DNA from: Mobula hypostoma
Lineage: Eukaryota
Length of the DNA: 64,000 bases
Assembly: GCF_963921235.1 (NCBI RefSeq)
Contig: NC_086097.1
Span: forward strand, 86,926,001 to 86,990,000
Direction of reading: 5' to 3'
The translations under genes and the position numbers were made by a program. This document shows positions 1,218 to 62,920 of the stretch, piece by piece; position 1 is the first letter of the stretch, and every line of letters starts with the position of its first letter. The notes beneath the pieces were generated by a model that did no database searches, was not told where the DNA came from, and saw only the letters and a program-made list of their open reading frames with translations.

Positions 1218-2099
1218 TACTGGGTAAATTAATTGGTCATTGTAAATTCCCTCGTGATTAGGTTAGGGTTAAACCGGAGATGTCGGGGGTTGCGGGTCAG
1301 TGCAGCTGGAAGAATTGGAGGGCCTATTCTGTGCAGTACCTCTGAAGAAATAAACAAAAGCATCTCAGGTAGTTTCCATTTGAGAGTCATCTGATTTCTG
1401 TGTGCAACAGCAAGCGTTCAAACTGTTCATCATTCCCAATACAAAGCCCTTGAAATAGTTGAGAACTGAGAGCACTGGACCTAGTTTCTCACTGTGATAA
1501 AGGTTCAAAGGTTCATTTTATTGTCAAAGTATGCACGTACAATACAACTCGGATACCTGTCTTCTCCAGATAGCCATGAAATACAGAAAGACCTTGGAAG
1601 TTGTTGAAAGAAAAGACATCAACTCCCCCCTCTCCCAGCATGAAAAAGAAAGAGAAACAAAACTCGCAAACCCCCAAATTCCCTCACCCCCCCAGCAGAA
1701 AGAAACCAGCAACAATAGCATAAAATCCCCATCCCTCCCCGCAGAAAAACAGCAACAAAAGCAACAAATCCCCAACCCACCCTGCAGAAGAAAATAGCAA
1801 CAATAACAATCCCTGACCCCTCAGTCTCAGAAAAAAAAGCGACAGTAGCATCAAAATTCCCAACCCCTCCCCACATGCAAAAAAAACTAACAGATCACCC
1901 ACCCACTCACAAGAAAGAAAATGCCAAAAATCTGGACGAGACCAATATAAAGTGCAATCCAAAATCATATAAATCTCAGAATATCAAAGACATCTTTCCA
2001 TCAGCAAATGAGGGAACATAATCTCAATCCTTCCATGTAGAGTGGCCACTCAGGGTCTGAACAGTATTTACTGATTTGTGCAGCCGATCACTTAGGTTT

Positions 2100-6634: not shown

Positions 6635-6933
6635 GCAACACACATAAAAAATGCTGGTAGAACACAGCAGGCCAGGCAGCATCTATTGGAAGAGGTACAG
6701 TCGACGTTTCGGGCTGAGATCCTTCGTCAGGACTAACTGAAAGAAGAGATAGTAAGAGATTCCCCCACCCCCACTTTCAAATCTCCTCTTTCAGTCAGTC
6801 CTGACGAAGGGTCTCCGCCCGAAACATCGTCTGTACCTCTTCCAATAGATGCTGCCTGGCCTGCTGTATTCTACCAGCACTTTTTATGTGTGTTGCTTGA
6901 ATTTCCAGCATCTGCAGATTTCCTCGTGTTTGC
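6635..6933. mobile_element. Non-coding Penelope-derived hairpin mini-element (two inverted 3' ends)
   Basis: Inverted arms matching the ends of the elements at 23102 and 30798. Perfect 14-bp TSD ATTGTCTTGCACAT (6621-6634 / 6934-6947). Confidence 0.85.
6699..6734 (-). ncRNA. Minimal type I hammerhead ribozyme
   Basis: AGTC CTGACGA AGGATCTCAGCCC GAAA C GTC GACT. Stem II is weakened. Confidence 0.65.
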
Positions 6934-8969: not shown

Positions 8970-11242
8970 TATTTTTTTTGCAGAAGTGGCCACACCTGCT
9001 GTGTTCTTCCAGCATTTTCTTTTTATATTAATATATTTACCTTCCAATTTAAGAGAAATGAAATGAATTCAGATTAGGCCAATGTAATACTGTAGGATAA
9101 AAGCTGAATTGTTTAGATCTCTGATTTATTTCTGAAGAATATTTTTGCAGGCTCAAGATGAACATGAAATTTCTATTTTTTTCATGATTTTCCAGCTTTG
9201 AACGATAGTCCAGGCATACACTTAAGTTTAAGTTAAGCAAGAAAGTTTAAAGACTTCACCTCAGAACAGAAAAACCTAATTATCACATTATGTTCAGCCA
9301 AAAAAGAAGAAAATTCTAGACCAGGGATAAACAAAACTTTTTGAGAGCTGTGCCCAAATTGGTGATAACCTTCTAAAAAATTCTCTCGCATGCTATAGTG
9401 ATTTTTACCAGAGATAATCAACGTTTAATGAATTAGTAATAATAGTTATGGACTTTTTTTTCAGGAAAGACGACAAGTTCTGTTGCTTATTACATGTATT
9501 CATTGTTTTACTATTAAAATATAACAGAAATAAATGAACCATTTTAGAAAACATGCTCAAAATTATTAATATTCATTTCAAAAAACTACTGAAAATATCG
9601 TAATTTCTAAATAGTATTGTCCTGTAACATTTTCTATCCAGATGTTGATGTGTACACCAGATCTGCAAGCATTTCAATATGAATCACCCAATGTCACGTG
9701 CCCTTGCAACCGTCTGGTAGGTGCCAACCTGGTGTGAGAAGTTTCCTGTGAAAATATCTCACTGCTCTCAGGCTGTAAAAAATCATTTGCTGTTTCATTA
9801 GGCAGTTCAGATAATCATTATGTATCTTTTTATTACGGGTGGGATTTAAAAAATTGAGGGGTTCAACTGTATGTTGTGTGGCAACAAAACTTTTACACAT
9901 GCCATAGCTTTGCCACCGTTGTAGACCCTTCAGCATAAAACCAAAGTCTAGAATTTACTCATTAATAACTGATCAGTGATAGTTACAAGAAATGTAATTT
10001 ACAACGAAAATGTAGCATTACTCTTCAAGGATCTCAAACTGAACATGCAATGTGCATGTATCAAAAAAAAACCTGATTAGCTACAATTATATTTTAGAAT
10101 CTTGATTCAGATTAATTTTTCACATGTACATTGAAGTATACAGTGAAATTGAAGTATACAATGACACAGTGAAATGTGTCATTTGTGTTAATAAGCAACA
10201 GGCCCAGGGATATGGTGAGAGCAGTCTGAAAGTGTCATGATACATTTCAGTGTCAACAGAGCACTGAGCAATGTTGAGGACTGAGAAAAAAAAGTTCTAC
10301 AAATGCTGAATAATTCTGGAAACAGTGATGCCTGGATCTCACTTGTTCCATTTGCTGAATTTGTTTACTCATCTTGGTAATCCAAGAAATATGATTTCCA
10401 ACAGAAGCAAATACTCCGTTAAAGTATACAGAACAACTGAAATTTTTGACAAGCTGAAATCAGCGCGAAAGGCCAGTCGTTGGTGACACAGCAAGAGGTT
10501 TAGAAAGAGCTCAAGAGTTTTAGCTTCATTTTGGCAGGCAGAAATCAGCATGAGGCCAATAAAATGAAAGGAGGTGTAAGTGGTTGGCCATTGTTGGAGT
10601 GGGGCTTTGGCTCAACAGGCTTAGGCGAGCACAGGTGGAGGTATTAAGTACGTAAGAAAGTTTCCAGTAAGCTTTTTCTTCTCTAAGTACATAGCTAGTG
10701 CACAGAGAATGGGTCCAAAAGTAATCGTATATTCCCTGTGTGAGATATGGAAATTTCAGATACCTTCGTTCTCCCTGATAGTTACATCTGCACAAAGTGC
10801 ATCGAGCTGCATCTCCTTAGAGACCATGTTAAAGAATTGGAGCTACAGTCTTCGGCTTATATGGGAAAATGAGGAGGTGATAGATAGGAGCTGCAGGGAG
10901 GTAGTCACCGCTAAGTTGCAAGAGGTATCCTGGGTGACTGTCAGGAGAGGGAAAGGGAATAGGCAGCCAGTGCAGAATACCCCGTGGCTATTCCACTCAA
11001 TAAAAAGTGTACCGCTTTGGATACTGTTGTGGTGAGGGGGGTGGAGAAATGACCTGCTGGGGGAAGCCACAATGACTGGGTCTCTGACACTGAGCCTGGC
11101 TCTGTGGCTCAGAAGGGAAGGGGGGAGGAGTGCTGTTAGCGATCGGGAATTCCATAATTAGAGGAGCAGAAAGCAGATTCCTTGGATGTGAAAGAGACAT
11201 TCAAATGGTATGTTGCTTCTCAGGTGCTAGGGTCAAGGATGT

Positions 11243-11477
11243 TGTGGTAAACCATATATATATATGTTGTAACTGGGTTACCTGTCTGGACACGCCCCTC
11301 TGCTGACTGATCCAGTGGCTCCTCCCACAGACCCTGAATAAAGGCGATTGCGCCATTGCTCCTCCTCTCAGTCCAGGGGCAGATACTCATCATGGTGGAG
11401 GTCTCATTTTACTGCTAATAAAAACCTTTCAGTATTAACTCTACTTCCAGTCTTTTGGAGTTATTGATAGAGCATCA
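11243..11477 (+). repeat. 5' LTR
   Basis: Direct repeat of 15447-15679 with about 15 differences by eye; AATAAA at 11417. Confidence 0.97.
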
Positions 11478-11502
11478 ATATTTTTAGCAGTAATTTTAAA
11501 GC

Positions 11503-14500
11503 ATGGAACACGTCCTGAGACCCGACAAGTTAGACCCCGACTCACAAACACCTGAAGCTGGAAATGCTTTTGAACTCTGGCTGGCCTGCTTCGAATCATA
11601 CCTAGAGGAGATTAAAGCGACCGAGTCCACTGCGAACCGCAGAGTTCTACTCTCCATGGTCAGTCCACAGGTCTACTCGATGATCAGAGACGAGACGAGC
11701 TACAACGGCGTGATGAGCGCCCTCAAAAGACAATACCTGCGGCCGGTAAACACCGTCTATGCGCACCATCGCTTAGCGACGCAGCAGCGACGGCCCAGGG
11801 AGTCAAGCGCTGAGTTTGTCCGAGCCCTACAGACACTTGTGCAGACCTGCAACTGCCGAGAACTGACAGCCGAACCCCATATGGAGCTCCTAGTGAGAGA
11901 CGCCTTCGTCACGGGGACCAGGTCAGTGTATGTGCGCCAGCGGCTGCTGGAACGAGCTGATCTTACCTTACATTCGGTGATTGAGCTGGCCGACATGCTA
12001 GAGGCTGCTCTGTACAACTCTGAGGCTCTCCAGGCACGCGATCCCCCGATGGCCTTGTGGGCGCCGCAGACCCCGCAACCCGCCGGTGAATCGACCATGG
12101 CTGCTGCCAGTCGCGAGTCCGTGAAGTGCTACTTCTGCAGACTCAAGAAGCATCCCCGGAAATGCTGCCCGGCCTGAGAAGCTACCTGCTCCAGCTGTGG
12201 AAAAAAGGGCCACTTTGCCAAGCCCTGTAAGTCCAAACCGCGAGTGGGATCAAGTAGCGCCACGTGTGAGACATGGAAGTCGCCATCTTGCCTGCCGCCA
12301 TCTTCCCTGCACACCACCACCACATGGGAGACATGGGGGCGGCCATCTTGGTCGGCGCCCCCTCCCACCGCCTACAACCAACGGGTGCTCACGCGGCACC
12401 CCACCGTGCCAGACCAAGACAGCGACTCAACCCTGGCCTCCGTGACCCTCGACCAAAGCGCTCCCCACCAGCTCACAAGGTCAGTGATGGACATCCTGGT
12501 GGAGGGGCGCAGGACAAGCTGCCCGTTTGACACAGGCAGCACGGAGAGTTTTATCCACCCGGACATGGTGCAGCATTGCGGACTCGCGATACGGCCGGTA
12601 AGTCAGAGGGTTGCCATGGCTTCCGGGTCGCATACAACAGACATCCGGGGAGGTTGTGTAGCGGCGCTAGTGGTGCAGGACACAGAATATCGGGACTTTA
12701 CGTTACTGGTCTTGCCTCAACTGTGTGCCCCTGTGCTATTGGGGCTCGACTTCCAGAGCCACCCGAAAAGCATGACAATGGAGTATGACAGCCCCCCCCC
12801 AGTTACTGTTGTAAATCCTCAGTTTTGTAGAAATACGTCACATACCCCGCTACTGACCACCCACACACACCGACCCCCACATCCCACCCAACACCATACC
12901 AACAGCCGCACTACCGACACCACTTGTGGCCTCTCCACCCTCAAGATCCCTCCCCCACCGCTGTCCGCCAACCTGACCCCCGACTGTAAACCTGTGGCAA
13001 CTAAAAGCAGGAGGTACAGCGTGGGGGACAGAGCCTTCATTAAGATGGAGGTGCAGCGGCTGCTCAGGGAGGGGGTCATTGAGGCAAGCACAAGTCCTTG
13101 GAGGGTGCAGGTGGTGGTTGTTCGGAACGGGGAGAAAAATAGGATGGTCGTGGACTATAGCCATACCATCAATAGGTTCACGCAGCTCGACGCGTACCCT
13201 CTACCCCGCATCGCGGATATGGTCAATCAGATAACACAGTACAAGGTGTACTCGACCATAGACCTAAAATCCGCGTACCATCAGCTCCCCAACCGCCAGG
13301 AGGACCGCCCTTACACTGCCTTCGAGACAGATGGCAGGCTTTATCACTTCCTGCGTGTCCCCTTCAGTGTCACGAATGGTGTATCTGTCTTCCAGAGGGA
13401 AATGGACCAGATGGTGGACCAGTGCCAACTGAAGGCCACATTCCCATATCTGGATAACATCACCAACTGCGGTCACGACCGGCAGGATCATGGCAACAAC
13501 GTCCAAAAATTTTTCCAAGTGGCCAAAGCTTTCAACCTCACCTATAACAAGGACAAGTGCGTGTTCGGGACCACCCAACTTGCTATCCTTGGGTGTGTCA
13601 TGGAGGACAGAGTCATTGGCCCTGACCCCGACCGTATGCGCCCTCTGTTGGAACACTCTCAGAGCCCTCAAAAGGTGCCTGGGCTTCTTTTCATATTACG
13701 CCCAATGGGTCTCTAACTACACATACAAGGCTCGCTCCCGGTCAAGTCCACCACATTCCCCCTCTCAGCCGAGGCCCGCGTGGCCTTCAGCTGCATTAAA
13801 GAGGAATTTGCCAAGGCAGCAATACATGCAGTGGATGAGGCCATTCCCTTCCAAGTAGTGAGTGACGCCTCCGACTTCGTGCTGGCTGCTACTCTCAACC
13901 AGGCGGGAAGACCGCTGGCGTTCTTCTCCCGTACCCTTCAAGGCCCTGAAATTCGGCACTCCACTGTGGAGAAAGAGGCCTAGGCCATAGTGGAAGCTAT
14001 TAAGCACTGGAGGCACTATCTCGCTGGCAAAAAGTTCACCCTGCTGACTGAACAGCGCTCAGTTGCATTCATGTTTAATAACCAACAGCGGGGCAAAATT
14101 AAAAATGATAAAATTCTGAGGTGGAGAATCGAACTCTCCACCTTCAACTATGACGTCATGCACAGGCCTGGGAAACTCAATGAGCCCTCCGATGCCCTAT
14201 CCCGGGGAACGTGCGCCAGCGCGCAGATCGACCGGCTATACACCCTACATGTAGATCTTCGCCACCCGGGGGTCAACCAGCTTTTCCACTTCGTGAAAGC
14301 CCGGAACCTGCCTTACTCCCTTGAGAAGATCAGGACGATGACCAGGGACTGCCAAGTCTGCGCAGAGTGCAAACCGCACTTCTACTGACCTGAAAAGGCA
14401 CCACTCATCAAGGCCACCCGCCCCTTTGAGCGACTGAGTGTTGACTTTAAGGGCCCCCTTCCCTCCATCGACCGCAACGTGTACTTTCTTAACGTTATCG

Positions 14501-15341
14501 ATGAGTACTCGCGGTTCCCCTTTGCCATCCCCTGCCCCGACACCACTACCACGTCAGTTATAAAAGCCCTGTGCAAGCTCTTCACTCTGTTCGGATACCC
14601 ATGCTATATCCACAGTGACAGAGGGTCCTCGTTTATGAGTGACGAGCTGCGCCAATATCTACTGGCTAGGGGAATTGCAACTGGTAGGACCACAAGCTAT
14701 AATCCCCGGGGGAATGGACAGGTGGAGAAGGAGAATGTCATGGTGTGGAAAGCCACACTCTTAGCCCTCAGGTCAAAGGGACTGCCGGTCTCCCGCTGGC
14801 AGGAGGTCCTTCCCGAGGCACTCCACTCCATCCGCTCCCTGTTATGCACGTCCAGCAATGCCACCCCTCATGAGCGGCTCTTTTCTTTTCCCAGAAAGTC
14901 GACCACTGGGACCTCTCTACCAACATGGCTGACGTCCCCGGGGCCAGTGCTGCTCCGGAAACATGCGAGGAGCAATAAATATTCCCCGATGATCGAGAGG
15001 GTTCACTTACTTCATGCGAACCCCCAGTATGCCTATGTGGTTTTGCCTGATGGGCGGGAGGACACGGTTTCTTTTCGTGACCTGGTGCCCGCAGGAGCAC
15101 CGGGCCCCTACCCTGAACACTCCGTGGTGACTATTGACCCCGTACCCACCGATGTATGTACCCACGAGACACCGCGCACTCCAAGCCCTACATAGACACC
15201 ACACGACACTCCCATACCGGGCGCGACGCACACGCACGAGGGATTACCGACGCCTAACGTGCTGACACCTGAAGTCAGGCCGGAGCCAGCACAACCGCCA
15301 TCGCCAGTGCAATCACCACCGGTGCTACGTAGATCACAGTG
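11503..15341 (+). pseudogene. Disrupted single-frame gag-pol
   Basis: gag CYFC..H..CPA*EATCSSCGKKGH (stop at 12175); PR FDTGS; RT IDLKSAYHQ and YLDN; RH SDAS..EKEA; IN VDF / HSDRG / GQVEKEN. Frameshifts near 13650-13740 and several stops. Confidence 0.93.
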
Positions 15342-15446
15342 ACGGACTCTTCTGCCTGATAGACTTGACCTGTAAATATACTTGTTTTAAATATTGTCAG
15401 TCACTTCACCCTGCGGGACTCTTTTTAACAAAAAGGGAGGGGTGAG

Positions 15447-15679
15447 TGTGGTAAACCACATATATATGTTGTAACTGGGTTACCTGTCTGGACACGCCCC
15501 TCTGCTGACTGTTCCTGTGGCTCCTCCCACAGATCCCTGAATAAAGGCGATTGCGCCATTGCTCCTCCCTCAGTCCAAGGGCAGATACTCAGCACGGTGG
15601 AGGTCACATTTTACTGCTAATAAAAGTCTTTCAGTATTTACTCTACTTCCAGTCTTTTGGAGTTATTGATGATGCATCA
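15447..15679 (+). repeat. 3' LTR
   Basis: Preceded by the PPT and followed by TSD GATGT. Confidence 0.97.
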
Positions 15680-16420
15680 GATGTATTGGATCGGGTTCAT
15701 GGCATTGTAAAGGGGGAGGGTGAACAACCAGAAGTCACGGTGCATATATCGACATAGGTAGGAAATGGAGAAGGACCCGAAGAGAGAATATAAGGAGTCA
15801 GGCAGAGAGCTGAAAAGCAGGACCTCCAGGTAGTAATCTCTGGATTTCTGCCTGTGCCTTGTACTAGTGACGGTAAGAATAGGATATTTTGGCAATTAAA
15901 TGTGTTGCTGAGGAATTGGCGCGGAGAGCAGGGTTTCTGATTTCTGGATTATTGGGATCTCTTCTGGGGAAAGTATGACCTGTACAAAAAGGATGGGTTA
16001 CCACTGAACCTGAGGGAGACTTTGGGTTGGGGTTACTAGAGCTGCTGGGGAGAGTTTAAACAAATTTGGCAGGGGGTTGGGAACCAGAGTGGTAGGGCTG
16101 AAGGTGGGACAGTTGGTATACAAGTAGATGCAGTGTGTGGTGAGATTGTGAGGAAGGAAAGGCAGATGATAGAGCAAAATTGCAGCCAGTGGGGCAAATT
16201 AAGGTGAAAATGAAAAAGGGAGATAAATACAGGACTGAAGGTGTTATATTTGAATGCATGTAGCATATGGAATAAGGTAGATGATCCTGTGGCACAGTTA
16301 CAGTTTGGCTGGTATGATGCTATGGGCATCACTGAGTCGTGGCTGAAAGATCATAGTTGAGAGCTTGACCTCCAAGGATCAACCGTATCAAAAGAACCAG
16401 CAGGAAGGCAGAGAGGATAT

Positions 16421-16540
16421 CAAAGTTGCTGGTGAACGCAGCAGGCCAGGAAGCATCTCTAGGGAGAGGTACAGTCGACGTTTCGGGCCGAGACCCTTCG
16501 TCAGGACCTTTCCAGCATCTGCAGAATTCCTCTTGTTTGC
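16421..16540. mobile_element. Penelope terminal fragment with hammerhead (16473-16508, minus)
   Basis: Same terminal sequence as the other copies, a short inverted tail, and direct repeat GAGGATAT on both sides. Confidence 0.8.
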
Positions 16541-18770: not shown

Positions 18771-18907
18771 AAACAACAGGAATTCTGCAGATGCTGGAAA
18801 TTCAAGCAACACACATCAAAGTTGCTGGTGAACGCAGCAGGCCAGGCAGCATCTCTAGGAAGAGGTACAGTCGACGTTTCAGGCCGAGACCCTTCGTCAG
18901 GACTAAC
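18771..18907 (-). mobile_element. Penelope 3' terminal fragment
   Basis: Terminal sequence of the family; TSD TGAGTA(G/C)ACTGT (18759-18770 / 18908-18919). Confidence 0.8.
18869..18904 (-). ncRNA. Minimal hammerhead ribozyme, intact
   Basis: AGTC CTGACGA AGG GTCTCGG CCT GAAA C GTC GACT. Confidence 0.85.
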
Positions 18908-19584
18908 TGAGTACACTGTGCTTGTTTTTCTTCAAGTAAAAGAAGCTGAAGGGTGACTAGATGGACATACATAAAAACTGAGAGGCATAGACAGGGTAGT
19001 TACAAGCCCTTTCCTGTCGTAATGCATAGGCTTAAAAAGAGAGGAAGGTGTTTTAAAAGAAATCAATTTTTTTTTCTTAAATATGATCTATATGGCAGTG
19101 GCCACTCCGGTGAATGATATCTGTTATCTGTCAGGTAGGGTGCCGTGCACAATCCTAATTTGATGGTGACAGACGTGAGAGCATGGAGGAACATCTGTGA
19201 AACTTCTGAAATACCTGCTTCGCTGCCACTGCTACTGAGGGATCCAGAATCTCCGGAGGGGGAAGGCCCCGAGTCCTCAGTTTTGCTTGTTGCTCGGCGG
19301 CTGGGGCAGGGTCGAAGCGCTCAGCAGAGATGGTGCTCGGTGCTCAGTGTCAGAGGGCCGGTCGGAGGCTCAAAGTTTTCGGACGGACTCAGAGTTGGCT
19401 GTGGTCGGGTGCTTCCAATGCATCGGCAAGTTTGCTGCGCTTGGAGTTCATGGCAGGGAGAGTTTCTCCCTTCTACCGTCTGCATGAGATGATGGGGCTA
19501 TCGGGACTTGAGACTTTTTTTTTACCGTGCCTATGGTCTGCTCTTTATCAAATTATTGCTTTGCACTGTTGTAACTATATAATC

Positions 19585-23087: not shown

Positions 23088-23200
23088 CACAATTTTCTAC
23101 ACAAACAACAGGAATTCTGCAGATGCTGGAAATTCAAGCAACATACATCAAAGTTGCTGGTGAATGCAGCAGGCCAACCAGCATCTATAGGAAGAGGCGC

Positions 23201-23236
23201 AGTCGACGTTTCAGGCCGAGACCCTTCGTCAGGACT
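23201..23236 (-). ncRNA. Minimal hammerhead ribozyme, intact
   Basis: AGTC CTGACGA AGG GTCTCGG CCT GAAA C GTC GACT. Confidence 0.85.
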
Positions 23237-23996
23237 AACCGAAGGAAGAGTGAGTAAGGGATTTGAAAGCTGGAGGGGGAGGGGGAGATCCAAAATGATA
23301 GGAGAAGACAGGAGGGGGAGGGATAGAGCCAAGAGCTGGACAGGTGATAGGCAAAAGGGGATACGAGAGGATCATGGGACAGGAGGTCCGGGAAGAAAGA
23401 CAAGGAGGGGGGGTGACCCAGAGGATGGGCAAGAGGTATATTCAGAGGGACAGAGGGAGAAAAAGGAAAGTGAGAGAAAGTATGTGTGCATAAAAATGAG
23501 TAACAGATGGGGTACGAGGGGGAGGTGGGGCCTTAGCGGAAGTTAGAGAAGTCGATGTTCATGCCATCAGGTTGGAGGCTACCCAGACGGAATATAAGGT
23601 GTTGTTCCTCCAACCTGAGTGTGGCTTCATCTTTACAGTAGAGGAGGCCGTGGATAGACATGTCAGAATGGGAATGGGATGTGGAATTAAAATGTGTGGC
23701 CACTGGGAGATCCTGCTTTCTCTGGCGGACAGAGCGTAGATGTTCAGCAAAGCGGTCTCCCAGTCTGCGTGGGGTCTCACCAATATATAAAAGGCCACAT
23801 CGGGAGCACCGGACGCAGTATATCACCCCAGTCGACTCACAGGTGAAGTGATGCCTCACCTGGAAGGACTGTTTGGGGCCCTGAATGGTGGTAAGGGAGG
23901 AAGTGTAAGGGCATGTGTAGCACTTGTTCCGCTTACACGGATAAGTGCCAGGAGGGAGATCAGTGGGGAGGGATGGGGGGGACGAATGGACAAGGG

Positions 23997-24032
23997 AGTC
24001 CTGACGAAGGGTCTCGGCCTGAAACGTCGACT
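23997..24032 (+). ncRNA. Minimal hammerhead ribozyme, intact
   Basis: Identical motif on the plus strand. Confidence 0.85.
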
Positions 24033-24364
24033 GCGCCTCTTCCTATAGATGCTGCTTGGCCTGCTGCGTTCACCAGCAACTTTGATGTATGTTGCCACAA
24101 TTTTCTACAGTCATTTTACTTCAGTGAAATTACACAAGACATGATCTGTCTGGATAGCACAACCAGCTTTCATTGTATCTTGGTACACATGGTAGTAAGA
24201 AACTAATCCAATCCAGATACATGTCCGGAGCACAAACACAAGAGATTCTGTAGTTGCTGGAAATCCAGAATAACAAACACATAAATTCAGCAGGTCAGGT
24301 AGCATCCATGAAGAGGAATAAACTTGACGTTTCAAGGTGAGACCCTTCACAGGCTGACTGAAGC

Positions 24365-27350
24365 CATAAGAATATAAGACCATATGGCCCATGGAATCTG
24401 CTCCACCATTCCATCACGGTTGATTTATTATTCCTCACAACTCCATTCTCCTGCCTGCTCCCCACACCTTTGATGCCCTGACTAATCAAGAACCTACCAA
24501 CCTCTGCTTTAAATCTACTCAATGACTTGGCCTCCATAGCCATCTGTGGCAGTGAATTCCACAGATTCACCATGCTCAGGCTAAAGAAATTTCTCCTCAT
24601 CTCTGTTCTAAATGGATGTGCCCTCTGACTTAGACTCACATCCTATAGGAAGCATCCTCTTTGCATCCACTCTATCTAGACCTCTCAATACTCAACAGGT
24701 TTCAATGAGATCCTCCATCGTTCTTCTAAACTCCACTGAATACTGGCCCAGAGCCATCAAACTCTCCTCATACGTTAAACCTTTCATTCCCAGAATCAGT
24801 TTTGTAAACTTCCCCTGAACCTTCACTAATGCCAGCATATTTTTCATAGATGGGACACAAAACTGCTCATAATGCGCCGTGTGATCTGACCAGTGCCTTA
24901 TAAAGCCTCAACATTACATCCTTGCTTTTATATTCTAGCCCTCTCAAAATGCTAACTTTGCATTTGCCTTCCTTATCACTGTCTCAAACTGCAAGTTAAC
25001 CTTTAGGTAATCCTGCACAAGACCCTTTGTATCTCTGATTTTTGAATTCTTTTCCTGCTTGGAAAATGGCTTACACCTTTATTCCTTCTACCAAAGCATG
25101 ACCATACACTTCCCTAGACTATATTTCATCTGCCACTTTGCCCATTCTCCTATCTGTCTAAGTGCTTCTGCAGACCCTCTGCTTCCTCAACACTACCTGC
25201 CCCACCTCCCCTCACCAATCTTTGTATCATCTGCGAACTTGAAATACAAAACCATCAACTCCATCATCCAAATCATTGGCATGTAATATGAATAGAACAA
25301 GTCCCAAAACCAACCTCTATGGAACACCGCTAGTCGCTGGTTCCCAATCAGAATAGGACCCCTTTCTTTCCACTCTCTGCCTCCTGCTCGTCAGCCAGTC
25401 TTCTGTCCTTGCTAGTACCTTTCCTGCAGTACCATGGGCTCTTATCTTGTTAAGCAGTCTCATGTGCGGTACCTTGTCAAAGGCCTTCTAAAAATCCATG
25501 TAAACAACATTCACTGACACTCCATTGTCTATCCTGCCTATTATTTTCTCAATGATTTCCAACAGATTTGTCAGACAAGATTTCTCCTTAAGGAAACCAT
25601 GCTGATTTTGGCCTACTTTATCATGCACACTCAAGAAGCTTGAAACCTCATCTTTATTAATGGACTACAACATCTCCCAACCACTGAAGTCAGGCTACTT
25701 GGCCTATAATTTCCTTTCTTGTGCCTCCCTCCATTCTTTAAGAGTGGAGTGACATTTGCAATTTTCCAGTCCTACAGAACCTTTCCAGAATCTAGTGATT
25801 CTGAAAGGTCATTACCAGTGTCTCCACAATCTTTTAAGCTATCTCTTTCAGAAACCTGGGGTGTAGCCAATCTGGTCCAGGGGAGTTATCTACCTTCAGA
25901 CATTTTAGCTTCCCAAGCACCATTTCCTTGGTAATAGCAGTTACATTCACTTCTGTCCCCTGATACACCAGAATTTCTATCATACTGCTAATGTCTTCTA
26001 CAGTGAAGACTTTCACAAAATACTTGTTAAGTTTTTCTGCCATTTCTTTGTCCCCAATTACTACCTCTACTGCATCATGTTCCAGCAGTCCAATATCCAC
26101 TCTCACATCACTTTTTCTCAGTATATATTTCGAAAAAAATTGGTATCCTCTGTTATACTATTGGCTATCTTACCTTCATATTTCATCTTTTCTCTCCTGG
26201 TAGTTTTTTTAAGTTGCCTTCTACTGGCTTTAAATCCTTCTCACTCCTTTAACTTCCCACTAATTTTTGTGATATATAAATATGCTCCCACTTTTGCTTT
26301 TATGCGGTCTTTGTCTTCCCTTGTTAGCCATGGTTGCTTCATCTTCCCTTTGTAGGTTAAGGTCCAGACTATGATCTTCTCACTATCCCTGGAAGTTAAG
26401 GTCCAGACTATGATCTTCTTTCAGCCATGACTCAGTGATGCCCATAATGTATACCTGCCGCTCCCTAACTACGGTATAAGATCATCTACCATTATTCCGT
26501 ATACTGATTGAATTCAAATATAACACTTTCAGTTCACTGTTCATCACCCGTTTCGATTTTGCCTCCATGTTGCATAAACCCATCCCACTGACTGGAAGTT
26601 TGCCCTATCATTTGCTTCTCCTTCTTCACACTCTCACTGCACAATGCATTGACTTGAATAGCAATTCCTGCATCCTCAGCCCTATCACTCTGACTCACTG
26701 TCAAGCCCTATCAATCCTCTTGCCAAACTAATTTAAACCCTCCCCAACAGCTCTAGAAAACCTGCCCACAAGGATATTGGTCTCCCTCGGGTTGAGATCT
26801 TACCCATCTGTTTTGCACAGGTCTTAAATTCCCCAGAAGAGATCCCAATGATCCAGAAATCTGACCCTCTGCCTCCTGCACCATTCCTTCAGCCACTCAT
26901 TCATCTGACCAATCATCCTACACCTGGCCTGACTAGCAAGTGGTACTGGGAATAATCCAGAGATTAATAACTTGGAGTTCCTGCTCTTTAGCCTCTCCTT
27001 AGACACACTGCGCAGGACCTCTTCCCTCTTTCTACCTGTCCCATTGGCCCTAATGTGCACCATGACTACTGGCTGCTTACCTTCCCTCTTGAGAATCTTC
27101 TGCAGACACTTTGAGACATCTTGAACCCTGGCACCTGAGAGGTAACCCACCATCCTGGCTTCTCGTTCATCTACACAGAGTCTGCTGTCTTTTCTTCAAA
27201 CTATAAGAGTCTCCTATCACAGACGCTCTGCCTGACTTTATGCCTCCCTGTTGAGCCTCAGAGCCAGCCACAATACCACTAGCCTGGCTGCTGGTGCTGT
27301 GCACGGATGGGCCATACGCCCCAGCACTATCCAAAGGAATGTACTTGTGG
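24365..27350 (-). mobile_element. Degenerate, internally deleted CR1 LINE
   Basis: SGARVQDV esterase (26824-27153); SPGPDWLHPRFLKE; FRTEMRRNFFS; tail near 24365. Confidence 0.85.
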
Positions 27351-29094: not shown

Positions 29095-29139
29095 AAAGTA
29101 TTCCCTTTCAAAAAGTTATAACTGGATTGACAATTTGTA

Positions 29140-29410
29140 TTTATTTATTTAGAGATGGAATTGGTCCTTCTGGCCAAATGAGCTGCACCACTCAGCAACC
29201 CTTATATTTAACCCTCGCCTAATCATAGGACAATTTACAATAACCAATTAAACTACTGAACAACATGTCTTTGGACTATGGGAGGAAATTGGAGCATCCG
29301 GAGGAAACCCACGCATTCAAGGGGAGGGCATACAAACTCCTTACTGAGGGCGCCAGTATTGAACTCTGAACTCCGACGCCCTGAGCTAAAATAGAGTTGA
29401 GTGTACTGCA
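29140..29410 (-). mobile_element. SINE-like dispersed repeat (related copies near 1220-1350, 40890-41130, 51180-51478, 57440-57720)
   Basis: Shared GGACAATTTACAATAACCAATTAA...GGAGGAAA.TGGAGCA..GAAACCCACG block and (TTTA)n end. Confidence 0.65.
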
Positions 29411-29471
29411 CCATAAGTTGATATTATGGGTCCCTTACACTAGAATTGATGAATATAGAGCTTTTTGATAC

Positions 29472-29613
29472 CTCCTTCTCAATATAAGACAGGCACAGGG
29501 AGTTGTAAGCCATGGCTTCCACTCTGTGTGATGAGTCATACAGATGCCATTTGTGGAAAATATGTCCACGCATGAAAACGAAGATATTTTAGCTGCCCGC
29601 CACGCATCTAAAT
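29472..29613 (-). pseudogene. GALNT11: GALNT11-like pseudo-exon (IWMCGG...GHIF...NSL exon)
   Basis: ttttttgctcag|I*MRGGQL, frameshifted, then HIFHKWHLYDSSHRVEAMAYNSLCLSYI...|gt. Recalled GALNT11 reads [37 protein letters not shown]. Not visible in the ORF track. Confidence 0.85.
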
Positions 29614-29699
29614 CTGAGCAAAAAATTAAAGACTTTTTATAATAAACACATACAGGAGAAAATTCTTTCCATTTAGTTAGATTAATTGTCAGCATTTGA

Positions 29700-30720
29700 A
29701 ATTATGGCATTGTAGCCTGTAGTAAGATTTGGTTGCAGGAGGGGCAGGACCGGCAGTCCAATGTTCTGTGGTTCCTTTGTCTTAGTGTGATATAGTGGGA
29801 GGGATTAAAGGAGGGATGGCATTGCTAGTCAGGGAAAATGTCATGACAGTGCTCCGTCAGGACATATTGGAGAGCTCATCTACTGAGGCTATATGGACGC
29901 AACTGAAGAATATGAGGAGATGACCAAGTTAGTGGGATTAAATTGTAGGCCACTCAATAGTTACCATGATTTAGAGGAGCAAATTTGTAGAGAGATGGCA
30001 GGTTGTTACCAGAAACATAAGGTTGTGGTAGTTGGTGATATTTAGCTTTCCACATATTGATTGGCACTCTCAGATTCTGAAAAGGCTGGATGGCATAGAG
30101 TTTGTCAAATGTATTTCGGAAAGTTTCCTTATAGAGGTCCGACTAGAGGAAGTACAATGCTGGATCTCCTATTAGGGAACAAGACAGAGCAGGTGACAGA
30201 AATTTGTGTAGGGGAACACTTTGGATCTAGTGATCATAATGTCATTAAGTTCAAGATAATTATGGAGAAGAATAGGTCTGATCCTTGGGTTGATTTTCTA
30301 AATTGGACAAAGGCCAGTTTTGATGAAATCAGAAAGGATATGGCAAGTGCAGATTGGGAAAGGTTGTTTTCTGGCAAAAGTGTCCTTGATAAGTGGAAGA
30401 CATTAAAAAGTGAAATTTTGGGAGTACAGTGTTTCTATGTTCCTGTCAGAAAAAAAGTCAAGGATAACAGGTTTAAGGAACCTCGATTTTCAAACTGTAT
30501 TGATGTCGTGGTTAAGAAGATGGAAGTGTACGGCAGGTTTAGGCAGCAAGGAACAAATGAAGTACTTGAGAAGTATACGAAGTGCAACCAAACTCCTAAC
30601 GAAGGAAATTAGGAAGGTTAAAAGAAGTTAAGAGATTGCTCTGGCAGACAAGGTGAAGATGAATCCCAAGTGCTTCGACAAATATATTAAGAATGAAAGG
30701 ACAACAAGGGACAAAATAGA
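29700..30720 (+). mobile_element. CR1 APE-endonuclease fragment
   Basis: PTRGSTMLDLLLGN...EHFGSSDHN. Confidence 0.85.
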
Positions 30721-30860
30721 TTTAGTGCACTTTTGCTGTGTACGTTTTGGAGCTAATAAAATGTGTTACGGGTTTCATTAAACATAAAACACCTCACGCA
30801 ACACACATCAAAGTTGCTGGTGAACGCAGCAGGCCAGGCAGCATCTCTAGGAAGAGGTAC

Positions 30861-30896
30861 AGTCAACGTTTCGGGTTGAGACCCTTCGTCAGGACT
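30861..30896 (-). ncRNA. Minimal hammerhead ribozyme, GUU variant
   Basis: AGTC CTGACGA AGGGTCTCAACCC GAAA C GTT GACT. Confidence 0.75.
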
Positions 30897-33160
30897 AACT
30901 GAAGGAAGAGTTAGCAAGAGATTTGAAAGTGGGAGGGGGAGGTGGAGATCCAAAATGATAGGAGAAGACAGGAGGGGGAGGGATGAAGCCAAGAGCTGGA
31001 CAGGTGATTGGCAAAGGGGATATGAGAGGATCATGGGACAGGAGGCCCAGGGAAAAAGACAAGGAGGGTGGAACCCAGAGGATGGGCAAGGGGTATAGTC
31101 AGAGGGACAGAGGGAGAAAAAGGAGAGTGAGAGAAAGAATGTGTGTATAAAAATAAATAACTGATGGGGTACAAGGGGGAGGTGGGGCATTAGCGGAAGT
31201 TAGAGAAGTCAATGTTCATGCCATCAGGTTGGAGGCAACCCAGACGGAATATAAGGTGTTGTTCCTCCAACCTGAGCGTGGCTTCATCTTTACAGTAGAG
31301 GAGGCCGTGGATAGACATGTCAGAATGGGAATGGGATGTGGAATTAAAATGTGTGGCCACTGGGAGATCCTGCTTTCTCTGGCGGACAGAGCATAGGTGT
31401 TCAGCAAAGCGGTCTCCCAGTCTGCGTCGGGTCTCGCCAATATATAGAAGGCCACATCGGGAGCACTGGACGCAGTATATCACCCCAGCCGACTCACAGG
31501 TGAAGTGTTGCCTCACCTGGAAGGACTGTCTGGGGCCCTGAATGCTGGTAAGGGAGGAAGTGTAAGGGCATGTGTAGCACTTGTTCCGCTTACAAGGATA
31601 AGTGCCAGGAGGGAGACCCGTGGGGAGGGATGGGGGGAACGAATGGATAAGGGAGTCGCGTAGGGAGCGACCCTGCGGAATGCAGAGAGAGGGGGGAGGG
31701 AAAGATGTGCTTAGTTGTGGGATCCCGTTACAGGTGGCAGAAGTTATGGAGAATAATATGTTGGACGCGGAGGCTGGTGGGGTGGTAGCTGAGGACCAGG
31801 GGAACTCTATTCCTAGTGGGGTGGCAGGAGGATGGAGTGAGAGCAGATGTGCGTGAAATGGGGGAGATGCATTTGAGAGCAGAGTTGATGGTGGAGGAAG
31901 GGAAGCCCCTTTCTTTAAAAAATGAGGGCATCTCCCTCGTCCTGGAATGAAAAGCCTCATCCTGAGAGCAGATGCGGCGGAGACGGAGGAATTGCGAGAA
32001 GGGGATGGCACTTTTGCAAGAGACAGGGTGAGAAGAGGAATAGTCTAGATAGCTGTGAGAGTCAGTAGGCTTATAGTAGACATCAGTGGATAAGCTGTCT
32101 CCAGAGATAGAGACAGAAAGATCTAGAAAGGGGAGGGAGGTGTCGGAAATGGACCAGGTAAACTTGAGGGCAGGGTGAAAGTTGGAGGCAAAGTTAATAA
32201 AGTCAATGAGCTCAGCATGTATGCAGGAAGCAGCGCCAATGCAGTCGTCGATGTAGTGAAGGAAAAGTGGGGGACAGATACCAGTATAGGTACGGAACAT
32301 AGATTGCTCCACAAAGCCAACAAAAAGGCAGGCATAGCTAGGACCCATACGGGTGCCCATAGCTACACCTTTAGTTTGGAGGAAGTGGGAGGAGCCAAAG
32401 GAGAAATTATTAAGAGTAAGGACTAATTCCGCTAGACGGAGCAGAGTGGTGGTAGAGGGGAACTGATTAGGTCTGGAATCCTAATCATGCCCTTACACTT
32501 CCTCCCTTACCACCATTCAGGGCCCCAGACAGTCCTTCCAGGTGAGGCATCACTTCACTTGTGAGTCGGCTGGGGTGATATACTGCATCCGGTTCTCCCG
32601 ATGTGGCCTTCTATATATTGGCGAGATCCGAGGCAGACTGGGAGACCGCTTTGCTGAACACCTACGCTCTGTCCGCCAGAGAAAGCAGGATCTCCCAGTG
32701 GCCACACATTTTAATTCCACATCCCATTCCCATTCTGACATGTCTATCCACGGCCTCCTCTACTGTAAAGATGAAGCCACACTCAGGTTGGAGGAACAAC
32801 ACCTTATATTCTGTCTGGGTAGCCTCCAACCTGATGGCATGAACATTGACTTCTCTAACTTCCGCTAATGCCCCACCTCGCCCTCGTACCCCATCTGTTA
32901 CTTATTTTTATACACACATTCCTTCTCTCACTCTTCTTTTTCTCCCTCTGTCCCTCTGACTATACCCCTTGCCCATCCTCTGGGTTCCCCCCCTTTGTCT
33001 TTCTCCCTGGGCCTCCTGTCCCATGATCGTTTCGTATCCCTTTTGCCTATCACCTGTCCAGCTCTTGGCTCCATCCTTCCCCCTCCTGTCTTCTCCTATC
33101 ATTTTGGATCTCCCCTTCCCCCTCCCACTTTCAAATTCCTTACTCACTCTTCCTTCAGTT

Positions 33161-33196
33161 AGTCCTGACGAAGGGTCTCGGCCTGAAACGTCGACT
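33161..33196 (+). ncRNA. Minimal hammerhead ribozyme, intact
   Basis: AGTC CTGACGA AGG GTCTCGG CCT GAAA C GTC GACT. Confidence 0.85.
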
Positions 33197-33439
33197 GCAC
33201 CTCTTCCTACAGATGCTGCCTGGCCTGCTGTGTTCACCAGCAACTTTGATGTGTGTTGCATGAATTTCCAGCATCTGCAGAATTCCTGTTGTTTGCGTTT
33301 ATAAAACACCTCACTTTGTTTTATTTGCAGAAACCTACAACATGGAGGCACCTTCATGAACTCCCACAACTCCTGACAGCCCTGTGATTTAATCTCTGAG
33401 CTAATCAACGGGCTGGAGTGTTTACTGATAATCATTAAA

Positions 33440-34543
33440 CTCTTACTTCAGCCGTCTGAGGTGCCCCCCCGCCACCCCGCTTCAAACATACCGCTGCGCA
33501 ATAAGAAACTAGTAACCTGCCTCAATGACTGTTATCCAGTAGCACAAACATGTAAAGGCTGTGTACTCAGCCCCCTGCTGTACTCATTGTACACCCAAAA
33601 TTGTGTAGCCAAGTTTCCATCAAACTCAATATATAAGTTTGCTGATGACACAACAATTGTAGGCCGTATCTCGGGTAATGATGAGTTTGAGTACAGAGAG
33701 GAAATTAAGAACCTGGTGAAATGGTGTGAAGACAGTAACCTATCCCTCAACGTCAGCAAGATGAAGGAATTGGTTGTTGACTTCAGAAGGAGTAGCGGAC
33801 CACACGACCCAATTTACATCGGTGATGCGCAAGTGGAACAGGTCAAAAGCTTTAAGTTCCTCGGGGTCAATATCACAAATGACCTGACTTGGTCCAACCA
33901 AGCAGAGTTCGCTGCCAAGAAGGCCACCCGGTGCCTTTACTTCCTCAGAAGACTAAAGAAATTTGGCCTGTCCCCTAAAATCCTCACTAATTTTTATAGA
34001 TGCACTGTAGAAAGCATTCTTCTAGGGTGCATCACAACCTGGTATGGAAGTTGTCCTGTCCAGTACCGGAAGAAGCTACAGAAGATCATGAAAACGGCGC
34101 AGCACATCACACAAACCAATCTTCCGTCCGTGGACTCACTTACACCGCACGCTGTCAGAGCAGTGCTACCAGGATAATCAAGGACACGATCCACCCAGCC
34201 AACACACTTTTTGTCCCTCTTCCCTCCGGGAGAAGACTCAGGAGCTTGAAGACTCATACGGCCATATTTGGAAACAGCTTCCTTCCAACTGTGATAAGAC
34301 TGCTGAACGGATCCTGACCCAGATCTGGGCCGTACCCTCCAAATATCCGGACCTGCCTCTCGGTTTTTTTGTACTTCCTTACTTTCCATTTTTCTATTTT
34401 CTATTTATGATTTATAGTTTAAATTTTTAATATTTACTATCAAATTGTAATCCAGGGAGCGGGAAGCGCAGAATCAAATATCGCTGTGATGATTGTATGT
34501 TCTAGAATCAATTGTTTGGCGACAATAAAGTATAAAGTATAAA
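33440..34543 (+). mobile_element. Rex/L2-type LINE, internally deleted RT to 3' end
   Basis: TCLNDCYPVA|GCVLSPLLYSLYT, KFADDTTIVG; tail (AAAGTAT)n. Confidence 0.88.
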
Positions 34544-45719: not shown

Positions 45720-47200
45720 TCAAGGTCAACCACAGACTTTGTGTCCTAGCTGTCTATGTGATACACAATCCAGTAAGAAAGCCAGGGCAGGAATGCTCCT
45801 CTTGCAGGATGTAGGAAGGCAGGGATACCTCCAGTGTCCCTGATGACTATAACTGGGTGAAGTGCATCCAGCTGTAGCTTTTAACAATCCATGCTAAGTA
45901 ATTGGAGTTGGAACTGGATGAACTCATGATCATTCGGGAGGCTGAAAGGGGGATAGATCGGACATATAGCGAGGTAATTAATCCCAAGGTGCAGGACACA
46001 GGAAATTGGATGACAGTCAGGAAGGGGAAAGGGGTTAACGAGCGAGTGCCGAGTACCCCTGTGGCCATCCCCCTTAACAATAGGTATATTACTTTGGATA
46101 CTGTTGGGGGGATGAGCTAACAGGGGAAAGTCACAGTGGTAGGGTCTCTGACACTGGGTCTGGCTCTGTGACTCAGAAGGGAAGGGGGGAGAAGAGGCGT
46201 GCTGTGGTGATAGGGGATTCATTGTAAGGTGAACAGAAAGGAGGTTCTGAGGGCGAGAACGAGATTTCCGGATGTATGTTGTCTCTGGGTGCCAGGGTCC
46301 AGGATATCTCAGATCAAGTCTGCAGCATTCTTAAGTGGGAAGGTGAACAGCCAGAGGTCATGGTCCATGTAGGTACCAATGACATGGGTCGGACACCTGA
46401 CAAGGCTCTGCAAAGTGAGGTCAGGGAGTTAGGTGCTAAGTTAAAGGGCTGGACCTCCAGGGTTGTGATCTCAGGATTGATGCCCATACCATGTGTAAGT
46501 GAAGCCAGAAATAGGAAGATTATGCAGTTTAACATGTTGCTAAGAATTGGTATAGCTGGGAGGGCATAAGAATTTTGGATCATTGAGCTTTCTTCCAGTG
46601 CAGATGGGACCTTACAGAAGCAAGATACATAAGGTTGTTACAGTAGGTGATTTTAACTGTCCACCTATTGACTGGGATTCCAATTCTGACAAAGGACTAG
46701 ATGGGATAAAGTCTGTCAAATGTGTTCTGGAAGGTTTCCTTCACCAGTATGTAGAAGTCCCAATGAGACAGCGTGTGAAACTTGTTTTGCTATTAGGGAA
46801 GGAGACAGGGCAAGTGACAAAAGTTTGTGCAGGGGAATATTTTGCATCTAGTGACCGGAATGGCAGTAGTTTCAAAGTAATTATACAAAAAGATCTGTCT
46901 GGTCCGTGGGTTGAGCTTCTAAATGGGAGAAGGGCCAATTTTGATGATATCAGGAATGATCTGGCAAATGTGGATAGGGACAGAATGTTTTCTGGCAAAT
47001 GTGTACTTGGTAAGTGGGAGGCCTTCAAATGCAATATTTTGAGAGTACAAAGCTTATATGTGCCTATCTGAATAAAAAATAGAGATATTAAGTGATATTG
47101 AAGAGCTATTCAAGAGATATTGAAGATTGCAAGGGACAAAATTGGTCCTCTGGATGATCAGAGACAAAAGAGATCAGAATGGTAATCCATGTGTAGAACC
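45720..47200 (+). mobile_element. CR1 ORF1 esterase and APE fragment
   Basis: VIGDSL, LGARVQDI, VHVGTND, VGDFNCPPIDW. Confidence 0.85.
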
Positions 47201-47289
47201 AAAAGAGATGTGGCAGAGCATATCACAGATTCACTACTCTCTGGCTAAAAAAAATTCCTCCTTACCTCCGTTCTAAAAGGTCTTATAAA

Positions 47290-47760
47290 GGCTCAGCATT
47301 ATCTCCTTGCTTTTATATTGTTGAGAGGGATGGCTGCAGGTGTGTTCTCCGCTATCTGACGTTCTCTTTTCCCTCTCCTGATAGTCACCTCCTGTAACTC
47401 TAGAGTGACTACCACACTGTAACTCCTGTCTATCACTGCTTCATTTTCCCTCACAAGCTGAAGGTCATCGAGCTGCAGCTCCATTTCCCTAACATGGTCT
47501 CTAAGGAGCTGCACCTTGATGTACCTGGTGCAGATGTGGCCATTGGAGAGGCTGAAAGTCTCCTGGAAATCCCACATCTAACAACCAGAACTGAATACCG
47601 GCTCTGTAGACATACCCACTATTCTCTCAAGATTTAAATAATAAATAAGCAGCGAACTTACTATCTACCTTGCCTCTGCCTGTTGTCGCTGAAGCCTTGT
47701 AGAGCCAAAGCCTTACTGCTCTGCCTCAGACTACTCTGACGATGGCTGCTCCGCTAGTTG
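47290..47760 (-). mobile_element. CR1 5' end / ORF1 N-terminus
   Basis: MWDFQE..HICTRY..QLLRDHVREMELQLDDL, homologous to 10709-11035. Confidence 0.75.
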
Positions 47761-50849: not shown

Positions 50850-51595
50850 GGCTGATTAAAGTTCTCCGCAAAGTGTTATAAAGAGTAAAACAGAGGCAAG
50901 AGTGGACATTCGACCGCTGGAAAATGAAGTTGGAAAGGTAGTAATGGGGGCCAAAAAATAGCAATAAGTATTTTGCGTTGGTCTTCATTGTGGAAGACAC
51001 TAACAGTATGCTGAAATTCAAGAGTGTAAGGATCAGTCGTGAGTGTAGTTTTTATTACTAAGGAGAAGGTGCTTGGGCAACTGAAATGTCTGAAGTTCGT
51101 TAAGTCACCTGGACCAGATGGAATACACCCCAGGGTTCTGAAAGAGGTAGCTGAAGAGATAGTGGAGGTTTTAGAAATTATTTATTTTTACTTAATGATA
51201 AGGCGCAGAGTATACTGCCCATCCAGCCCTTTGAGCCGAGCAGCCCCAGCAACTCCGACAAGCCTGATTTAACACTGAACTAATCATGGGACAATTTACA
51301 ATGACCAAATTATCTATCTATAACATTGTTGGAGCGTGGGAAGATACTTAAGCACATGGGAAAAACCCATGCATTCCATGGGGAGGATGTACAGACTCCT
51401 TATAGGGGACGCTGGGATTGAACACCAAACTCCGATGCCCTGAGCTGCAATGGTGTTGCACTAATTGCTACACTATCAATCTTTCAAGAATCACTAAATT
51501 CTGGAAATGGGTCCAGAGAACTGGAAAATTGTGAACGCCACTCCACTCTTTAACAAGGGAAGAGGCAGAAGAAAGGAAATTATAGGCCAGTTGTG
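50850..51595 (+). mobile_element. CR1 fragment split by a SINE
   Basis: KSPGPDGIHPRVLKEVAEEIV...GNYRPV. Confidence 0.8.
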
Positions 51596-62769: not shown

Positions 62770-62920
62770 GCTTCGCACACAAAATGCAGGAGGAAATCAA
62801 CAAGTCTCAGGGGAACAAACAGTTGACATTTTGGCTGATACCCTTCATCAGGACTGGGAATGAAGAGGGCAGAAACCAGAATTAGAAAGTGGAAGGAGGC
62901 AAAGGAGTAGGGAGGGAGTT
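62770..62920 (-). mobile_element. Old Penelope terminal remnant with a dead hammerhead (62821-62855)
   Basis: AGTC CTGATGA AGGGTATCAGCC AAAA TGTC AACT (GAAA changed to AAAA). Confidence 0.6.

Follow-up and report, generated by a model that had tools for sequence, protein, structure and literature searches.

Minimal hammerhead motifs in truncated Penelope-like element insertions of Mobula hypostoma: features of a predicted dimer ribozyme in a cartilaginous-fish family

Minimal hammerhead ribozymes of Penelope-like elements (PLEs) share the consensus (>80%) CUGANGA-H-G...C-GAAA-palindrome-UH, a short stem I, a loopless helix III and a position in the pLTR (Cervera & de la Peña 2014, PMC4209133). 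That work already described solo copies that are truncated, as well as pairs on opposite strands 100-700 bp apart; in it, a schistosome motif showed no cleavage as a monomer and only weak cleavage as a dimer or trimer. The dimer view of minimal hammerheads is also reported in a review (PMC6765202), which cites Lünse et al. 2017. In PAc, a Poseidon element of Anolis carolinensis (Frangieh et al. 2024, PMC11167929), the motif was cut only in the presence of the element protein, uncut RNA served as the insertion template, and the tail is defined by two reverse transcription start sites; core mutants left in vitro insertion unchanged, and none of the RNA reads had an end at the cut site. Furthermore, type I hammerheads derived from the pLTR of PLEs occur in non-LTR retrozymes, which form tandem arrays with a hammerhead in each unit and have been reported in one chondrichthyan (bioRxiv 10.64898/2026.07.22.740005). 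The in vivo function of PLE hammerheads is still considered an open question (PMC8557442).

Here, a 64-kb stretch of Mobula hypostoma DNA (contig NC_086097.1; in the following, the window) was analyzed, for which an earlier note had described a 36-nt motif as a minimal, dimer-type hammerhead at every Penelope end. Exact copies of the 36-mer were found at 18869(-), 23201(-), 23997(+) and 33161(+), as compared to 0.00 in 100 shuffles, and near matches at 16473(-) with 2 mismatches and at 6699(-) with 3. When up to 12 mismatches were allowed in an ungapped scan, eight places in the window came up, every one within 4 mismatches; they include 6797(+) and 30861(-) with 4 mismatches each. Decayed copies at 24288-24348(-) and 62820-62855(-) were added by blastn. 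The window contains eight intact motif copies, four of them identical, and two decayed ones (Table 1), and the exact, mismatch and blastn searches bore out all coordinates that had been assigned to the identical, variant and decayed copies.

Table 1. Motif copies and Penelope-like element insertions in the 64-kb window (window coordinates).
Feature	Position	Strand	Remarks
Minimal hammerhead, intact, G10.1-U11.1	23201..23236	-	predicted cut after C at 23205; 30 bits
Minimal hammerhead, intact, within inverted piece	23997..24032	+	predicted cut after C at 24028; 26.4 bits
Minimal hammerhead, 4 differences (C11.1, loop II, C17>T)	30861..30896	-	32.2 bits
Minimal hammerhead, intact	33161..33196	+	predicted cut after C at 33192; 30 bits
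Decayed motif copy, older subfamily, 2-nt deletion in core	24288..24363	-	missed by model R1
Decayed motif copy, older subfamily, flanks differ	62820..62856	-	17.1 bits
Insertion A	23102..24095	.	head-to-head PLE pieces, 14-bp target-site duplication
Insertion A, - piece	24000-23102	-	5'-truncated, endonuclease region to tailed end
Insertion A, inverted piece	23997-24095	+	99 nt, tail-less, begins at stem I; 4-nt junction overlap
PLE ORF C-terminal remnant	23536..24000	-	CX4CX2C linker and GIY-YIG endonuclease; PF01541, E 5.4e-5
Insertion B	30798..33295	.	head-to-head pieces, 14-bp target-site duplication
Insertion B, - piece	32485-30798	-	RT C-terminal part, stop and frameshift, GIY-YIG, pLTR, tail-less end
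Insertion B, + piece	32486-33295	+	GIY-YIG part, pLTR, tailed end
36-nt 'tail'	33260..33295	+	each inverted insertion has a tail at one end only
Insertion C	6635..6932	.	two short inverted pLTR ends, 14-bp target-site duplication
Insertion C motifs	6699-6734, 6797-6832	-, +	palindrome of the latter lost (ACAT)
Insertion D	16419..16539	-	motif 16473-16508 (canonical G10.1-C11.1) begins at stem I; ~8-bp duplication
Insertion D, inverted tail piece	16509-16539		31 nt; precedes motif, carries no motif
Insertion E	18771..18910	-	140-nt motif and tail, motif 18869-18904; 12-bp duplication, 1 mismatch

Stem I (AGTC/GACT), CTGACGA, GAAA, the ACGT palindrome and the GTC site are read directly from the sequence, as had been proposed. 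In hammerhead numbering, stem I AGUC is followed by C3-U4-G5-A6-C7-G8-A9, an extra A, stem II GGGU/GCC(U/C) with a 4-nt loop, G12-A13-A14, A15.1-C15.2-G16.2-U16.1, C17 and the second stem I strand GACU. Stem II had been assigned as AGG/CCT, a pairing that fits the four copies with T before GAAA, only those, and at a worse energy. In the identical copies, stems I and II together fold with -6.0 kcal/mol in the GGGU register and with -4.6 kcal/mol in the AGG/CCU register, and in copy 16473 the corresponding values are -7.9 and -3.9 kcal/mol. By folding, the better register has an extra A after A9 and then the 4-bp stem GGGU/GCC(U/C). The extra base that separates positions 9 and 10.1 is an A in all eight window copies, and the closing pair G10.1-C11.1 of four copies is replaced by a G-U wobble in the four identical ones. 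The ACGU palindrome is present in seven of the eight copies, and there is no helix III loop. A search with the Rfam models gave no match at the gathering threshold, and none of these models finds the motif; three chance matches, none a hammerhead, were obtained in a search up to E 10 over 23100-24150.

The window motif contains the core CUGANGA ... GAAA ... UH and agrees with the published PLE motifs in the full consensus, the short stem I, the loopless helix III and the pLTR position. Some motifs listed in PMC4209133 likewise have a G-U pair that closes stem II, and in comparison to the motifs of that work only the stem sequences are particular to the window family. Thus, as far as sequence can tell, the motif has every feature of PLE minimal hammerheads that can be checked, and cleavage is predicted. 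The minimal hammerhead of the Acropora digitifera Neptune element (PMC4209133 supplement) has the same core, a 4-bp stem II with a tetraloop, ACGU and C17, and it matches the motif of the largest family among the endonuclease relatives that we fetched (see below); it differs from the window motif by a stem I of 3 bp, by other stem letters and by its position ~97 nt past the ORF end, as compared to 292 nt in the window family. No cartilaginous fish is present among the motifs inspected in Fig. S3 and Table S1 of PMC4209133, although its other supplement or that of the bioRxiv study could list one, and a literature search for hammerhead ribozymes of shark Penelope elements returned no such report.

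Relatives of the element were collected by their endonuclease alone. The resulting 92 loci comprise the best 80 of 410 confirmed in metagenome contigs and 12 loci from genome contigs; 20 of them have less than 250 nt downstream, leaving 72 testable loci. A strict match, for which the descriptor required stems I and II and did not require the palindrome, was present in sense orientation within 900 nt in 24 of the 72 loci and in antisense orientation in none (shuffles, 0.0). Many of the 48 loci without a strict match are one or two changes away from the core, and some lack the region. Since the 92 loci form clusters of 81, 6, 3, 1 and 1, they represent about five independent families. Among the 24 strict matches, the palindrome at 15.2/16.2 is perfect in 17 (16 ACGU, 1 AUAU), has an AUGU wobble in five and is broken in two, and the change of the helix III palindrome from ACGU to AUAU is confined to one family (L010). 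Thus, self-complementarity at 15.2/16.2 is kept across families, in agreement with the prediction of the dimer model.

For covariation analysis, 11 motifs were picked by hand, three of the eight window copies and eight of the 92 loci. In this alignment 96% of the cells are paired and seven of nine pairs change on both sides, as compared to at most 40% for slid structures and to 0/500 shuffles. Stems I and II are supported by this covariation, which is partly circular because the rows were picked with a descriptor requiring both stems. All aligned families have retained ten core positions and the NUH triplet. A covariance model (R1) built from 10 motifs from outside the window ranks the eight window copies first with 26-33 bits, finds the 62820 copy and misses the one near 24325; on 49 kb of unrelated loci its maximum is 10.8 bits. 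One extra match in the window at 1337-1371(+) with 18.7 bits was rejected, as it has neither the GAAA box nor stem II. The earlier assignment as a minimal type I hammerhead of PLEs is upheld by the fit to the published consensus, the model from distant relatives, covariation and the sense position near the endonuclease.

Some further observations were made in the course of these searches. Scans of DNA with a 20-mer of the tail gave one viral and eight prokaryote matches, which were taken as chance and of which none has the motif, and none of 54 candidates was confirmed when viral contigs were scanned at the protein level. L090-L101 are eukaryote-type PLE copies in contigs of bacterial MAGs, probably host DNA carried into the bins. 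A Stegostoma protein model (P0013) continues across the pLTR to a C-terminal MKGLRPKRQ, similar to a translated hammerhead core, which hints at the motif in sharks.

Judged by its sequence, the carrier of the motif is a GIY-YIG PLE, of which five truncated insertions, grouped from the self-comparison of the window and from end sequences, hold the eight intact motifs. Element copies are 93-94% alike over 780-870 nt in the window self-comparison. The reverse transcriptase (RT) precedes a C-terminal GIY-YIG endonuclease in one ORF, which is truncated and broken in the window; GIY-YIG scores above the Pfam cut-off in two of three ORF pieces (insertions A and B). A 250-aa RT piece, with no Pfam match of its own, matches RT plus GIY-YIG proteins, with 66-74% identity to ray and shark proteins, its best named relatives, and 48-59% identity to other proteins, among them many unnamed and cnidarian ones with about 50-58%. 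The linker CKRNKCYTC fits CX2-5CxxC of Neptune and Nematis; such a linker between RT and endonuclease is a Neptune trait common to Nematis (PMC8557442). Together with the indirect link via the Acropora Neptune motif, it suggests a Neptune-type element.

The motif lies in the pLTR, sense to the ORF, 292 nt beyond the ORF stop in the 33161 copy, and at a distance from the element end of 63 nt where the tail is lacking and of 99 nt where it is present. With respect to the claim of a motif at every Penelope end, this holds for the 3' (pLTR) ends, both of the three protein-coding remnants detected by tblastn and of all short pieces detected by blastn, with the 31-nt tail piece at 16509-16539 as an exception. 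No element 5' end is present in the 64-kb window and no full-length element of the window family was found, so that the 5' motif and the ORF start are inferred. An inverted 5'-truncated copy, a tail at one end and a target-site duplication were seen in 3/3 large or paired insertions; all of these are standard for PLEs (PMC8557442; PMC3846280). All three two-motif insertions are inverted, and there is no same-sense two-motif insertion in the window. Unlike the units of non-LTR retrozymes, the window motifs are not overlapped by any tandem array. The window copies are likely dead insertion products, which our model predicts not to cut.

Other repeats in the window include an LTR retrotransposon at 11243-15679 (+) with LTRs at 11243-11477 and 15447-15679 (93% identical) and gag-like, protease, RT and integrase pieces in Ty3/Gypsy order in several frames. 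LINE remnants are located at 58466-60767 (-), with endonuclease and RT in a 527-aa frame, and at 33377-34177 (+), with a C-terminal RT piece. Further old interspersed repeat families, 65-85% alike, were seen at 10739-11240, 45824-47583, 15805-16379, 26385-27220, 29138-30456, 50877-51589, 57441-57672 and other places.

Concerning the mechanism, we consider it quite likely that the intact tandems of this family form a slow, conditional and probably protein-assisted dimer ribozyme, that insertions are made from uncut RNA with two start sites and on two target strands, and that the window copies are inert. The best fold of the monomer is a rod with G5-A6-C7-G8 over C15.2-G16.2-U16.1-C17 and -10.0 kcal/mol. 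A lone motif, devoid of helix III, would fold as this rod and cover the cleavage triplet. In an intact element, a partial tandem would place one motif before and one after the ORF; the two same-sense motifs would swap their stem I strands and pair ACGU with ACGU, and each core would cut its partner after GUC. Such an arrangement is found in the relative L010, which is full-length and has a 936-codon open frame between two same-sense motifs 3,152 nt apart, the geometry needed by a cis dimer. As a separate observation, the rod as an 'off' fold is possible when N7 is C or U in G5-A6-N7-G8, as in 33161-33196 and like copies.

These considerations modify the earlier proposal that two same-sense copies pair through ACGU. 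From the geometry of the sequence, this pairing alone is insufficient, as the stem I strands must be exchanged too. The wording that self-cleavage takes place only in such pairs also leaves aside the protein-dependent cleavage of PAc (PMC11167929). Same-sense pairing within an insertion does not apply to the window, where each two-motif insertion is inverted and its transcript would carry the motif together with an antisense motif, the two being predicted to base-pair. By folding, 32.9 of 36 nt of the sense motif are buried in the antisense copy in insertion C and 35.9 of 36 nt in insertion A. Paired copies facing in opposite directions likely cannot form the two-copy complex predicted for cutting. 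Five intact same-sense copies are located on the - strand, the nearest pair 2.4 kb apart, and a chance dimer may form in read-through RNA of this strand.

The energy of the active dimer of the identical copies is -9.5 kcal/mol, as compared to -18.2 kcal/mol for a rod-type dimer and -28.3 kcal/mol for the MFE dimer, tertiary contacts being uncounted. Folding z-scores of motif and tail (+0.18 to -1.25) are not significant, so that folding energy gives no support. Since the active dimer is not the form preferred by nearest-neighbour energies, the case for the dimer step comes from covariation and analogy. The same energies could be taken to speak for a monomer chaperoned by protein, in which the RT-endonuclease would bind the pLTR RNA, open the rod and hold a two-bp helix III with no need for a partner. 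This would fit the protein requirement of PAc cleavage, which endonuclease mutants did not stop (PMC11167929). However, a single strand cannot close the loopless pairs A15.1-U16.1 and 15.2-16.2, self-complementarity persists from family to family, and within the scope of the tests in PMC11167929 the protein may instead bring two RNAs together. A chaperoned monomer appears unlikely to us.

By analogy to published PLE work, cutting by the proposed dimer would likely be slow and likely depend on the element's own protein. Slow, conditional cutting would leave most RNA uncut, fitting window copies that extend 67 nt (tail-less) or 103 nt (tailed) beyond the predicted cut. Since the motif is located 63-99 nt inside the 3' end, the RNA template was uncut at the motif. 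Reverse transcription would start downstream of the uncut motif, likely at two start sites, giving the tailed and the tail-less end of a single head-to-head insertion. In PAc, the motif is likewise upstream of two RT starts with the tail between them, uncut RNA is likewise the template and both target strands are extended (PMC11167929). PAc differs in belonging to the Poseidon clade and in an ORF that starts in stem II; the window element has the CX4CX2C linker, and the first Met of L010 is ~130 nt beyond the cut site, unlike in PAc. A short inverted repeat (33211-33218 / 33273-33280) links the post-motif region with the tail; its fold z-score is not significant. Several contig joints go back between these two segments, which may be part of an RT start structure.

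Furthermore, the 5' junctions were inspected as a possible record of cleavage. Three of the eight window copies start within 10 nt of C3, and six of 24 inverted pieces of relatives start at -11 to -3, a clustering with p about 0.017 in a post hoc scan (17 values between -100 and +60). Two pieces of relatives start at +28 and +29 (L081, L062), the cut site being +28. None of the eight window copies starts at the cut site, and among the places listed for the public-run contigs of the window family there is no pile at this position. At 33161-2 there are long loose ends with low agreement, similar to those at the true tail end; they are confounded with an older subfamily (see below). We regard it as a rather doubtful idea that cDNAs end preferentially just 5' of stem I, with a smaller class ending exactly at the cut site by run-off from cleaved RNA. 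The ends at the edge of stem I would then arise where RT stops at the folded motif of uncut RNA, or from a transcript 5' end or splice junction. If true, tens of thousands of young copies bounded by duplications would make in vivo cleavage by PLE hammerheads measurable from DNA alone. At 33140-33162, stem I is bordered on its 5' side by a pyrimidine tract followed by AG. An intron of D. virilis Penelope ends at helix I (PMC4209133), and by this likeness a 3' splice site may lie at the stem I edge of the window family. Pyrimidines are abundant throughout the 3' region, however, and among the contig joints listed none ended at this edge.

The clustering of junctions just upstream of stem I, in both the window and the inverted pieces of relatives, would also be expected if the motif were kept mainly as a structural signal for protein binding, RT pausing or stopping or 5' processing, with cutting being incidental. 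In line with this, all eight window copies derive from RNA uncut at the motif, neither an effect of core mutants on PAc insertion in vitro nor RNA ends at the PAc cut site were seen (PMC11167929), and 32 of 74 copies of the coral-like relatives have the core change U4 to C with the rest intact (L016, L018, L024, L092-L096, L099, L100 and others); U4C is mentioned in PMC3088659. A pure structure, however, would not need the ten core positions and the NUH triplet that are kept in all aligned families, and cleavage has been shown for other PLE motifs (PMC4209133; PMC11167929). We judge a mainly structural role very unlikely.

Conservation was also assessed on the level of subfamilies. In the coral-like relative family, 33 of 740 core positions are changed as compared to 221 of 1258 upstream positions, the latter also including truncation flanks; subfamilies differ immediately outside the stems, with U4 as the sole differing position inside. 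For the window family, contigs of the public runs X19, X21, X1 and X4 were aligned to 32960-33330 (24541, 15566, 9406 and 6809 contigs, respectively). All 24 matching public runs listed are contig sets, with no RNA among them and thus no view of RNA ends, and for the aligned runs no position was listed at which many molecules start or stop; these data do not speak to expression or cleavage. Likeness starts at 33161-2 in 446 and 158 contigs of X19 and in 295 contigs of X21, and stops at 33196-7 in 137 and 425 contigs of X19 and in 102 and 313 contigs of X21, with coherent but different sequence beyond 33196-7. An older subfamily shares the motif but not the flanks, and its likeness ends at the edges of stem I. 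In the public-run contigs, the variable places within the motif among those listed are 11.1, C17 and the final base of stem I. C at 11.1 (33184) makes up 21-29% of the contig depth in X1 and X4 and 59-76% in X19 and X21; the four identical window copies, which have U11.1, come from three insertions. In some lineages, a young subfamily in which G-U closes stem II appears to have spread.

Among six young window copies, with the two gapped copies of insertion C left out, changes amount to 1/72 in the core, 5/144 in the rest of the motif and 15/318 downstream, and most of them fall at CpG sites. Thus, the core shows no clear advantage over the flanks in this set, as is to be expected of dead copies. 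As young dead copies decay neutrally, the contrast between core and flanks, on which the earlier note would have let its proposal fall, is a weak test among such copies; the contrast appears between subfamilies instead. The same counts bear on a use by the host, in which the window copies would cut a read-through transcript as chance dimers. Such a use could be suspected from four copies that are intact and identical and from the five same-sense copies on the - strand. However, the identity reflects youth, given the 93-94% likeness of the element copies at large, and the core shows no clear excess of conservation. Moreover, the ORFs are truncated and broken, there are thousands of like contigs per run, and antisense partners bury the motif in folding. 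Host use is highly improbable in our view.

Overall, our analysis adds a family of cartilaginous-fish elements to a motif class known since 2014. Two-site, two-strand priming gains tidy support at the genomic level from the three head-to-head insertions with tailed and tail-less ends. Mapping 5' junctions relative to the cut site and the edge of stem I, in so abundant and young a family with clean target-site duplications, could make the in vivo function of PLE hammerheads testable.
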